Under the pieces are notes generated by a model. That model was given only the letters and a program-made list of their open reading frames with translations, was not told where the DNA came from and did no database searches. A stretch of DNA of 64,000 nt from Thermoplasmata archaeon (GTDB lineage: Archaea > Thermoplasmatota > E2 > JACPAO01 > JAHFTW01), in assembly GCA_034667725.1 (NCBI GenBank), contig JAXDQS010000004.1, positions 1-64,000 of the forward strand, written 5' to 3'. Positions 24,777 through 25,794 of the stretch are shown here, piece by piece. Positions within the stretch are counted from its first letter, which is position 1. Each line of letters starts with the position of its first letter. The translations under genes were made by a program, and so were the position numbers.

Positions 24777-25601
24777 GTGGCCCTGGAACGCATCCTGGCG
24801 GTCGACACCGAGACCTGCGCCTTGGGCGGCGGCCGCGACCGCGTCGTCCAGTTCTGCGTCGCCGAGCTCGACCTCCAGCTCCAAGAACGCGCCCGCTGGA
24901 CCCAGCTCGTGAACCCCGGCCGGCCCATCCCGCCCATGGCCACCGCCGTCCACGGCATCACCGACGCCATGGTCGCCGACGCGCCCCGCTTCGCCGAGCT
25001 GGCCCCCCGCCTCCGGCCCCTCTTTGGCCCGCGCACCGTCTTCATGGCATACAACGCCGGCTTCGACCTCGGCGTCCTCAACCTCGAGTTCCAGCGCGCC
25101 GGCGTCCCGGCCCTGCCCGACGACCTCCCCGTGCTGGACCCGCTCCAGGTCGAACGCGCCGTCACCAGCCGCAGCCTCGGCCCCACCTACACTCGCTACA
25201 CGGGCCAAGTCCTGGAGAACGCGCACACCGCCGACGCCGACGTGGCCGCCATGGTCGAGGTGCTGCGCCGCCAACGCCAAGCGCACGCCGACAAGCTGCC
25301 CGCCGACGTGCTCGGCCTCGTCGGCTGGCCGCCGCCACGGACGCGGACGGCCCGGCGCGGCCACCTCTACGAGGACGACGCGGGCGTCGTGCGGCTGGGC
25401 TTCGGCAAGCACGCGGGGCGGGCCGCGCGCGAGGTGCCGGCTTATCTGGCGTGGATGCTGGAGGAGGACTTCCCGGAGCGAACGAAGCGCGCGGCGCGAC
25501 GTGTGCTCCAGGAGTCCACCCTCCACATCCAACTGGCCGGCAGGCCAGTGGATGCTCGGCCGGAGCGCAGCAGCGCTCTGGCCGTCCGCGCCGAAGGCTG
25601 A
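24777..25601 (+). CDS. DEDDh 3'-5' exonuclease (DnaQ/ExoX-like) with a C-terminal FGKH domain
   Basis: VDTET, YNAGFD, AHTADAD, FGKHAG..YLAWML. Confidence 0.88.
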   Translation: MALERILAVDTETCALGGGRDRVVQFCVAELDLQLQERARWTQLVNPGRPIPPMATAVHGITDAMVADAPRFAELAPRLRPLFGPRTVFMAYNAGFDLGVLNLEFQRAGVPALPDDLPVLDPLQVERAVTSRSLGPTYTRYTGQVLENAHTADADVAAMVEVLRRQRQAHADKLPADVLGLVGWPPPRTRTARRGHLYEDDAGVVRLGFGKHAGRAAREVPAYLAWMLEEDFPERTKRAARRVLQESTLHIQLAGRPVDARPERSSALAVRAEG

Positions 25602-25683
25602 GCGGGGCGAAGCCAAGGCAGGGGGACCTTGCGGGTCACGAAGTGGCCCGCAAGGGGAGGAGGACTTCCCCGAGCGGACCAAG
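25460..25683 (+). mobile_element. Hairpin-rich ORF-less insert duplicating an internal 3' segment of the exonuclease gene
   Basis: Direct repeats at 25460-25487 and 25656-25683 (25/28 identical); terminal hairpin CCTTGCGGGTCAC-GAA-GTGGCCCGCAAGG. Confidence 0.65.
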
Positions 25684-25740
25684 AAGAAGGTGCGGCGCAT
25701 CCTGACCGCGCCCGCCACGGTCCCCACGACCGCCCACGAG

Positions 25741-25794
25741 ACACAGACCCTACAGGTTCGCTAGAACATCGTTCCTGTTCTGTGGAATCTGTGT
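25741..25794. repeat. Degenerate palindromic repeat related to the one at 51347
   Basis: ACACAGA...TCTGTGT ends; the minus strand reads CACAGATTCCACAGAACAGGAACGAT. Confidence 0.45.

Follow-up and report, generated by a model that had tools for sequence, protein, structure and literature searches.

The DNA considered here is a stretch of 64,000 nucleotides from a Thermoplasmata archaeon of soil (the window, which is the first 64 kb of contig JAXDQS010000004.1 in a 2.3-Mb metagenome-assembled genome of 72% G+C and 90% completeness), and it carries a gene for a DEDDh-type 3'-5' exonuclease whose C-terminus has been replaced by an insert, with the original tail surviving downstream. A first-pass annotation of the stretch had proposed this replacement, and the proposal is borne out by the single tail and 3' flank of the nearest relative, by a contrast in codon use between the two tails and by the canonical ends of the orthologs. 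As to how the replacement came about, we think it somewhat more likely than not that a hairpin cassette without genes brought the new exonuclease tail, that the native tail was thereby displaced downstream, and that the arrangement was spread by host homologous recombination.

The two tails share a direct repeat of 28 nt (25460-25487 and 25656-25683, at a spacing of 196) in which 25 of the 28 positions, and all of the first 15, are identical. The annotation had described this repeat as carrying three synonymous third-position differences and as being followed by further protein similarity, and both details stand: CCG/CCC, CGA/CGG and ACG/ACC are all synonymous in the EEDFPERTK frame, and past the repeat the gene reads KRAARRVL where the orphan copy reads KKKVRRIL. 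The upstream repeat is part of a core (25452-25487) whose DNA is nearly invariant across the genus. The 196 bp of the insertion consist of a tail copy and hairpins, with no open reading frame (ORF) of their own and no cargo gene.

Which of the two tails is native can be read from the nearest relative, P0002, whose protein is 86% identical to that of the window (87% in DNA along the whole gene body), is its sister in the tree with support of 100/100, and lies at a locus with the same upstream genes (Pus10, a 160-aa ORF and DUF72). P0002 has a single tail, KRKVRRILTETVLA followed by a stop, which is of the orphan's type and matches the orphan at 86% of DNA positions over 51 nt (counted by eye). 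After its stop comes the motif CTGCGGAATCTGCGTCC, and on that relative's contig (L115) the end of the exonuclease gene is trailed by a diverged copy of the intergenic repeat that marks the window's 3' flank. Because the single tail and flank of P0002 match the orphan and its flank, the latter are the lineage's own gene end. The orphan itself reads KKKVRRILT..ETQTLQVR and a stop, then CTGTGGAATCTGTGTCC; after its intact codons it has suffered an indel of about 27-30 nt and its end has drifted; between its TAG and the stop of bioD, which is convergent, there are 43 nt.

The wider family agrees with this assignment. Some 60 exonuclease orthologs were recovered, with the tail readable in roughly 60, and about 50 of the approximately 60 end 25 codons past the residues WML in the pattern WMLEEDFPERTK..RR.L.E..L.V and a stop, giving proteins of 246-252 aa, most commonly 248 aa. 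Among these orthologs the insert is not conserved coding sequence. The tail in use is of the KRAARRVLQE... type, homologous to ortholog tails such as KRAARRILQESTLVA with its stop and KRAARRVLQEQTLPV... Codon usage separates the two. The tail in use (25488-25535) holds rare codons (CGA twice and CGT) and has a third-position G+C content (GC3) of 0.80 against 0.94 in the gene body, and the intact part of the orphan, whose codons had been called host-like, does have a GC3 of 1.0. Ranked by mean logarithm of relative synonymous codon usage, the intact part of the orphan comes first (-0.52), followed by the gene body (-0.66), the tail in use (-1.06) and the read-through extension behind it (-1.35).

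The host protein is a well-supported member of its family: residues 8-163 match Pfam RNase_T (E 6.4e-21, 76 bits against a cut-off of 24), which places it among the DEDDh/RNase T-type exonucleases, and residues 207-234 give a weak QSregVF_b match (a small C-terminal domain, weakly like PF12843). An AlphaFold 2 model of the 274-aa protein is a confident fold with a mean predicted local distance difference test score (pLDDT) of 88.7, and its last helix (residues 234-254) is built by the tail in use. That tail reads on into a disordered extension of 24 residues, and in the model the 20 residues past the helix (255-274) have a pLDDT of 45-59; the codon use of the extension is unlike that of coding sequence. 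To judge from the model, the exonuclease with its replaced tail probably still works, with an appendage. By bringing replacement tail codons, the cassette would let the gene stay functional.

The layout does not come from an assembly error. The stretch was found in one public sequencing run only, which is probably its source and was kept as contigs, and in an independent assembly of that run at k = 31 a single contig crosses 25449-25950 with zero differences, so that insert and second repeat are contiguous in the reads and are not an assembly join. A neighboring k = 31 contig stops at 25478, a branch point of the graph inside the conserved core, and no deletion allele was seen among the k = 31 contigs of the run. 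Two assemblies from other samples have the same full layout and a third has a reduced form. An assembly chimera is ruled out by the bridging contig, by the lack of a shared k-mer at the junction and by the independent assemblies of the same layout.

The insert is unusually structured, the region 25440-25690 folding with z = -7.7. The hairpins that the first-pass annotation had listed exist, with z-scores for all except two 3-bp GAA-loop hairpins that are too small for the test: CTGGCC-GGCA-GGCCAG has z = -4.1, the stem of GAGCGC-AGCA-GCGCTC grows to 10 bp in a DNA fold (z = -3.5), and the 13-bp GAA-loop hairpin at 25628-25656 (z = -3.9) ends at the second repeat as claimed, its last base being the first base of the repeat. 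The imperfect inverted copy of the target (25509-25532 against 25453-25477) is likewise real and forms a long imperfect hairpin with z = -4.7. What is not supported is the suggestion that this copy acts as a guide or a folded attachment site. Its complementarity is partly present in the coding sequence of every ortholog; the EEDF codons and the RR[IV]L codons are paired in 73% of cells across 17 orthologs, whose tail region has no compensatory change, no covariation and no consensus structure. We do not call the inverted copy a guide, because it is coding sequence, a shorter version of the complementarity occurs in all orthologs and nothing covaries. No recombinase able to use an attachment site was found.

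Table 1. Positions of the exonuclease locus and of the other elements discussed in the text, in window coordinates unless a contig is given
Feature	Position	Strand	Remarks
DEDDh (RNase T / DnaQ-like) 3'-5' exonuclease gene	24777..25601	+	274 aa, against 248 aa in canonical orthologs
Conserved core, codons WMLEEDFPERTK	25452..25487	+	25460-25487 is the upstream repeat copy (R1)
Rest of the tail in use, A-type (RAARRVLQESTLHI)	25488..25535	+	No stop at the canonical position
Imperfect inverted complement of 25453-25477	25509..25532	+	Pairs into a long hairpin across the tail-coding region
Hairpin CTGGCC-GGCA-GGCCAG	25533..25548	+	Lies where the tail in use meets the following target copy
Read-through extension QLAGRPVDARPERSSALAVRAEG	25536..25601	+	Insert-encoded, predicted disordered, GC3 0.76; stop TGA 25599-25601
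GTGGATGCT	25548..25556	+	Same as the 9 nt ahead of the gene's repeat; also conserved in L114 and L197
Big hairpin CCGGAGCGC-AGCA-GCGCTCTGG	25560..25581	+	9-bp stem; repeat family at tRNA and RNase P RNA ends of related genomes
Window-specific spacer: GGGGC-GAA-GCC, CAGGGGGACC, 13-bp GAA-loop hairpin (25628-25656)	25602..25655	+	Abuts the second repeat
Displaced native tail (orphan, R2)	25656..25764	+	Out of frame; codons EEDFPERTKKKVRRILT intact, TAG 25762-25764
Intergenic repeat copy CTGTGGAATCTGTGTCCAG	25784..25806	+	Marks the original 3' flank; also after the stop in the nearest relative
bioD, dethiobiotin synthetase	25808..26497	-	Convergent; original downstream neighbor; Pfam AAA_26, E 9e-40
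105-nt element, copy in the window	18615-18715		Repeats 18583-18606 / 18722-18745
105-nt element, other full copies in the window's genome (G000)	C3:174672, C3:223691, C3:267870, C3:368172, C5:147672, C10:432018, C11:32391		

Within the insert, the nine nucleotides GTGGATGCT are best read, from the sequence, as the start of the displaced native copy, severed from the rest by a hairpin element, because the second repeat resumes the target exactly where these 9 nt end. Together with a collinear 8-mer they were equalled in 40 of 20,000 shuffles, a figure that we set aside because the 8-mer is the hairpin's own arm; that arm, CCGGAGCG, equals the PER codons of the target. The simplest anatomy is then one of two tail copies, the copy in use (25451-25535) with its junction hairpin and a native copy interrupted after 9 nt; in the window the interrupting element also includes the 54-nt spacer with the 13-bp hairpin. 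The stretch 25546-25601 begins with GTGGATGCT and contains CCGGAGCG, but its reading as a third, decayed copy of the tail was rejected (tail alignment p 0.13, and 0.29 in L114). The spacer at 25602-25655 has no further copy in the window's genome, where the whole insert (25488-25655) finds only itself, and an Rfam search of 25300-25900 returned nothing.

The same arrangement recurs elsewhere. Over the entire region the window can be aligned with three metagenome contigs: L114 (P0010), L197 (P0015) and, in a reduced form, L116 (P0043). All four share one order, consisting of a stopless A-type tail (KRAARRVLQEQTLPV), a junction hairpin, TGGATGCT, the hairpin with the 9-bp stem, a shared stop and an out-of-frame canonical tail, and the extension is homologous in the three contigs; the window's spacer is missing from them, and at the position of the junction hairpin L114 and L197 have another one, GTGCGC-ATCA-GCGCAC. 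The proteins of the three contigs belong to a clade distant from the window's, the other members of which use a K.QVRRILTEQPLL. tail. Their orphans (KKQVRRILTERPLVV and KRQVRRLLTEQPLLV, each with its stop) are of the tail type of their own insert-free sisters; in full, the orphan tail is LEEDFPERTKKQVRRILTERPLVV and a stop in L114 and ..KRQVRRLLTEQPLLV and a stop in L197.

Two further lineages differ at the right-hand side. The genome G002 (L033:6661-6780) has the A-type tail fused in frame to the rest of its clade's native tail (..TLPLRVAG-ILEERTLVA and a stop), and L198 (3667-3768) has the A-type tail followed by unrelated codons and no orphan, in a clade that otherwise has KKAVRRVLSEQVLAV tails. 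In each such lineage a tail of foreign type stands before or instead of the local one, and the right-hand junction is not constant. The insert, which has a copy of the gene's most conserved DNA segment on either side, is present in some lineages and absent from their sisters, and the downstream copy is always of the local type.

One might ask whether the two tails are kept as alternative functional C-termini, reached by recoding, splicing or DNA switching. In favor, L114 and L197 have an orphan that is still an intact canonical tail, and in L197 it lies in frame behind a single TAG; yet the frame of the orphan relative to the gene changes from lineage to lineage (+1 for the window, +2 for L114, in frame for L197), an indel interrupts it in the window, most of it is gone from L116, and neither an Rfam family nor an intron-like motif was found at the locus. 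We regard this explanation as very improbable. The in-frame position in L197 goes with a 2-nt deletion (L197:1599-1733) that gives an early TAG in the extension and leaves the displaced tail in the gene's frame behind that one stop. Programmed bypassing and an archaeal bulge-helix-bulge intron were rejected on the same grounds of varying frames and decaying orphans.

More serious is the possibility of a local rearrangement without any import, in which the quasi-palindrome of the tail caused a template switch or slippage that duplicated the gene end in an ancestor, the copies diverged and a hairpin landed there later. The tail-coding region is indeed an imperfect palindrome of 80 nt (z -4.7), the divergence between lineages in the A segment and in the B segment (25546-25601) is about that of the gene bodies, and the succession of direct, inverted and direct copies resembles the inverted triplications that origin-dependent inverted-repeat amplification (ODIRA) produces when replication switches template at short inverted repeats (Brewer et al. 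2015, PMC4689423). ODIRA-type events, unlike the present case, span kilobases and use local inverted repeats, whereas the junctions here are a family shared across loci and genomes. The tandem inversion duplications of Salmonella are kin of ODIRA, with the same direct/inverted/direct order and palindromic junctions. Against a local origin, the two tails are 89% identical over 28 nt and only about 60% beyond, with unrelated flanks; in each lineage the orphan has the type of tail used by the insert-free sisters, and it is still intact in L114 and L197, where an ancient spare copy would have decayed everywhere; and Tandem Repeats Finder found no array at the exonuclease locus. On balance we hold a purely local origin to be unlikely.

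The big hairpin connects the locus to other genes. A first blastn search of the insert against 32 genomes of the taxonomic family gave short matches only, at insert positions 70-111; a reading of these as GC-rich chance hits was dropped when a pattern search identified them as members of a family of hairpins in the relatives, so that the insert does have structural relatives there. The pattern C[CT]GGAGCGC-NNNN-GCGCTCC[GA]G, of which the window's hairpin is an exact match, occurs in 8 of the 31 other genomes of the family with 1-6 copies each, against 1 hit for a reversed control. It lies behind genes for tRNA-Lys, Ala, Ser, Leu, Pro, Arg and Val, 45-85 nt past the 3' end, and in two genera also behind the archaeal RNase P RNA gene. 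The units to which it belongs have a constant order on the strand antisense to the target: a direct copy of the target end of 9-25 nt, the hairpin, a motif (AGCGAGCGAAGCGAGCGG), an inverted copy of 8-20 nt, a spacer and the real end, with the inverted copy in each tRNA-type unit being that of its own target. A hidden Markov model (HMM) of the tRNA-type units has a single match in the window's genome, the exonuclease insert (E 9.6e-4).

Measured against this grammar, the exonuclease insert has the 9-nt direct copy, a weakly similar motif and a target that resumes without duplication; its inverted copy lies upstream in the coding tail and not downstream. The first-pass annotation had drawn a parallel with tRNA units from the inverted copy. 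The parallel itself survives, in that the insert shares a 22-nt hairpin with units at the tRNA genes of relatives, and the part that lacks support is the inverted copy as a guide or attachment site. As observations beside the tRNA units, big-hairpin units with direct and inverted copies of the target end lie at a distance of about 65-72 nt behind the RNase P RNA gene in L216:1137-1522 (G006) and L220:1501-1875 (G019), which belong to different genera, and tandem arrays of the unit with periods of 118 and 125 nt lie behind tRNA-Leu and tRNA-Pro (G006:C7:83915-84054, L221, and G007:C3:267854-268000, L222), where each unit bears its own copy of the tRNA end. In L197:1532-1546, and also in the L033 tail, the A-type codons ERAKRA (GAGCGAGCGAAGCGAGC) share 15 identical nt with AGCGAGCGAAGCGAG, the motif behind the hairpin in tRNA-linked units; this is not significant by itself (E 0.07), the motif is not enriched in the window's genome, and the likeness is only a lead.

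On the reading that we favor, a small hairpin-rich cassette without genes would have entered between the gene body and the original last 25 codons as an insert of about 196 bp. It carries its own copy of the tail, of the other allelic type and without a stop, hence the disordered read-through, while the native tail lies downstream, untranslated and decaying, with a hairpin element of about 99 nt separating its first 9 nt from the rest. The composite would enter lineages, and spread among them, by host homologous recombination: because the nearly invariant core of 28-40 nt flanks both sides, a donor with the insert could recombine with a single-tail recipient, with a left crossover somewhere in the core or the body of the gene and a right crossover in the native tail or the orphan; the two cores could also recombine with each other and so delete the insert again. 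For its first formation at a new target, template switching at palindromes and an enzyme of another kind are both candidates; the direct, inverted, direct order with palindromic junctions fits the former, and the constant grammar at many targets argues for something more specific.

Several points weigh against this account. The window's genome has just one copy of the big hairpin, the HMM alignment is limited to the hairpin and leaves out the rest of the tRNA-type unit, the 54-nt spacer of the window is without relatives, and the short, clean duplication of the target that the tRNA units have is missing at the exonuclease. In tail and extension the window is about 75% identical to L114 and L197, no closer than in the gene bodies, and homologous recombination at about 75% identity is inefficient. 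No donor lineage was found among the lineages recovered, nor a recent donor of the window's tail, and we infer transfer from tail types and tree positions because no near-identical donor is at hand; a metagenome scan with the exonuclease protein was flooded by distant exonucleases and gave one useful locus. Finally, an A-type tail alone is no proof of import, since KRAARR tails are common as ordinary tails in basal lineages.

The regularity of the units raises the question of whether they are mobile in trans, as cassettes of an undescribed kind whose hairpins would be recognized by some enzyme and whose target-complementary arm would guide or template insertion at gene 3' ends. Their grammar is consistent at many targets in several genomes, each copy with its own inverted target copy, the species-specific and multi-copy 105-nt element described below sits 0-15 nt after stops, and the hairpin arm equals the PER codons. 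No candidate enzyme appeared, and at the exonuclease the inverted copy is coding sequence that is partly present in all orthologs and does not covary; moreover, the exonuclease core does not resemble a tRNA 3' end significantly (p 0.35, other gene segments scoring alike), and we rejected it as a mimic of one. An origin of this kind seems to us improbable.

The usual mobility enzymes are scarce in these genomes. The window's genome has no Y1 transposase, TnpB, reverse transcriptase or small GIY-YIG nuclease (the only GIY-YIG match is in a 945-aa frame), and its only tyrosine recombinase match is marginal, at 27.2 bits, on another contig. Among the 32 family genomes none has a Y1 transposase and one has a reverse transcriptase, in a genus without the hairpin. 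A diversity-generating retroelement was rejected for lack of a reverse transcriptase and because the repeat mismatches (G/C, A/G, G/C) are not confined to adenines. These results also bear on the idea that the locus is the scar of a site-specific integrative element (a virus, plasmid or island) that used the exonuclease 3' end as attB, carried the replacement end in attP and has since lost its body, so that attL and attR would now stand about 200 bp apart, in the manner of a cis-mobilisable element (CIME). Such a scar would account for the identical 15-nt core that starts both repeats, for the foreign type of the replacement tail and for the variation between species in the genes downstream. 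It is hard to reconcile with about 20 orthologous loci at which neither an integrase nor an element body lies beside the exonuclease, with a right-hand junction that differs between lineages (G002, L198), or with a hairpin family that also sits at tRNA and RNase P RNA ends together with an inverted target copy, which is foreign to att sites. We consider it quite improbable.

Duplicated gene ends are not confined to the exonuclease. Genome-wide, repeat pairs with at least 21 of 24 positions matching number 833 at a spacing of 60-400 nt and 43 at a control spacing of 3060-3400, making them about 20 times commoner at the short spacing, many of them in repetitive coding sequence; the scan gave 20-odd loci of the form end, hairpins, end again. 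Among the 47 tRNA genes there are 12 whose 3' end is repeated in direct orientation at +67 to +153, several with an inverted copy at +35 to +50 as well; among those with a downstream end copy are the window's tRNA-Leu (41095-41369), tRNA-Pro at C3:236155, tRNA-Thr at C10:350050 and tRNA-Leu at C5:34506.

A 105-nt element of four hairpins, whose last part reads ..AGGGGGTCC-TAGGGGC-GAA-GCCCCTA, is present in the window's genome in 8 full and about 5 partial copies; in 12 further species of the same genus it was not found. Copies begin either 0-15 nt away from the stop of a long ORF or downstream of a tRNA, and at 8-9 of the 13 sites that have its last hairpin the preceding 11-95 nt are copied 2-12 nt after it at 85-100% identity. 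In the copy at C3:174672 the final two codons of the gene and its stop lie within the element. The profile of this family (nhmmer, E <= 10) recovers the full and partial copies and matches neither the exonuclease insert nor its spacer; the 13-bp hairpin of the insert shares CAGGGGG.CC and a GAA-loop hairpin with the element, yet in view of the missing profile match we do not count it as a member. The intergenic repeat CTGTGGAATCTGTGTCCAG / GGGAATCTTCCGAATCTG..GAATCAGTGC is often tandem with a period of about 75 nt, with copies, besides the one in the window, at C3:455906-455982, C3:462403, C3:473359, C10:12543, C10:122465, C5:167943 and others. It is a tentative possibility, about which we are more doubtful than confident, that the exonuclease insert, the units at tRNA and RNase P RNA genes and the 105-nt element form one undescribed class of gene-less archaeal mobile DNA that homes to the 3' ends of RNA and protein genes, restores each disrupted end from the copy it carries, works with a target-complementary arm and conserved hairpins, and is driven by an enzyme of the host or of a new kind and by none of the known transposases.

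Several known systems share part of this behavior. Insertion with long target duplication (Nobusato et al. 2000; Furuta, Abe and Kobayashi 2010, PMC2853133) is known from bacteria, where it is of kilobase size and brings restriction-modification cargo, and its life cycle has been proposed to pass through recombination between the repeats (PMC2853133). The locus is like it in having no transposase or integrase, long and variable repeats, a single copy in an insert-free relative and, as is often so there, a position at a gene 3' end. The repeat length required there (>30 bp) is reached when the 28 nt at 89% and the 9 nt at 25548-25556 are taken together as 37 nt, after which the duplication goes on as diverged tail codons, and the lack of a mobility gene agrees as well; cargo genes are missing. 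Unlike those insertions, the present insert is about 200 bp, gene-less, hairpin-built and archaeal, and its upstream repeat is a diverged allele that codes for the protein end.

WHO elements at FBA1 in Torulaspora and Lachancea yeasts exchange the 3' end of a housekeeping gene for their own copy on integration (Coughlan et al. 2020, PMC7282813). The replaced host end and the old end displaced downstream are also found at the exonuclease; WHO elements encode the endonuclease that drives their homing, whereas the present insert is without a nuclease gene. The REP, BIME and REPIN palindromes, for which RAYT (Y1) proteins act as transposases (Bertels and Rainey 2011, PMC3116915), are similarly short, GC-rich, extragenic and multi-copy and lie at gene ends, but they neither duplicate nor replace those ends, and their type of transposase is the one lacking from the 32 genomes.

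The exonuclease gene sits between a DUF72 gene and the convergent bioD gene, and the adjacency of exonuclease and bioD is common to the window, G004 and G005. The DUF72 gene (23893-24773 in the window) lies upstream of the exonuclease in the window and P0002 and directly downstream of it in G002, G009 and L114, and the genes from the exonuclease to a conserved quinone oxidoreductase are different in almost every species. The genomes related to that of the window are Thermoplasmatota or Thermoplasmata archaea from soil and groundwater.

The locus offers a case in which the end of a housekeeping gene has been swapped for a foreign allele with function probably kept, and because a relic of the native tail remains, the direction of the event is readable from the sequence and the relic is datable. 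One hairpin family would then tie together three kinds of target, a protein gene, tRNA genes and the RNase P RNA gene, in genomes without the usual mobility enzymes. If the units are mobile in their own right, they may be an unrecognized and widespread source of gene-end turnover, of structure in 3' untranslated regions and of annotation error, with C-termini extended or truncated, among archaea and bacteria that have not been cultured; if they are merely scars left by recombination, they would be useful markers of gene flow between species.

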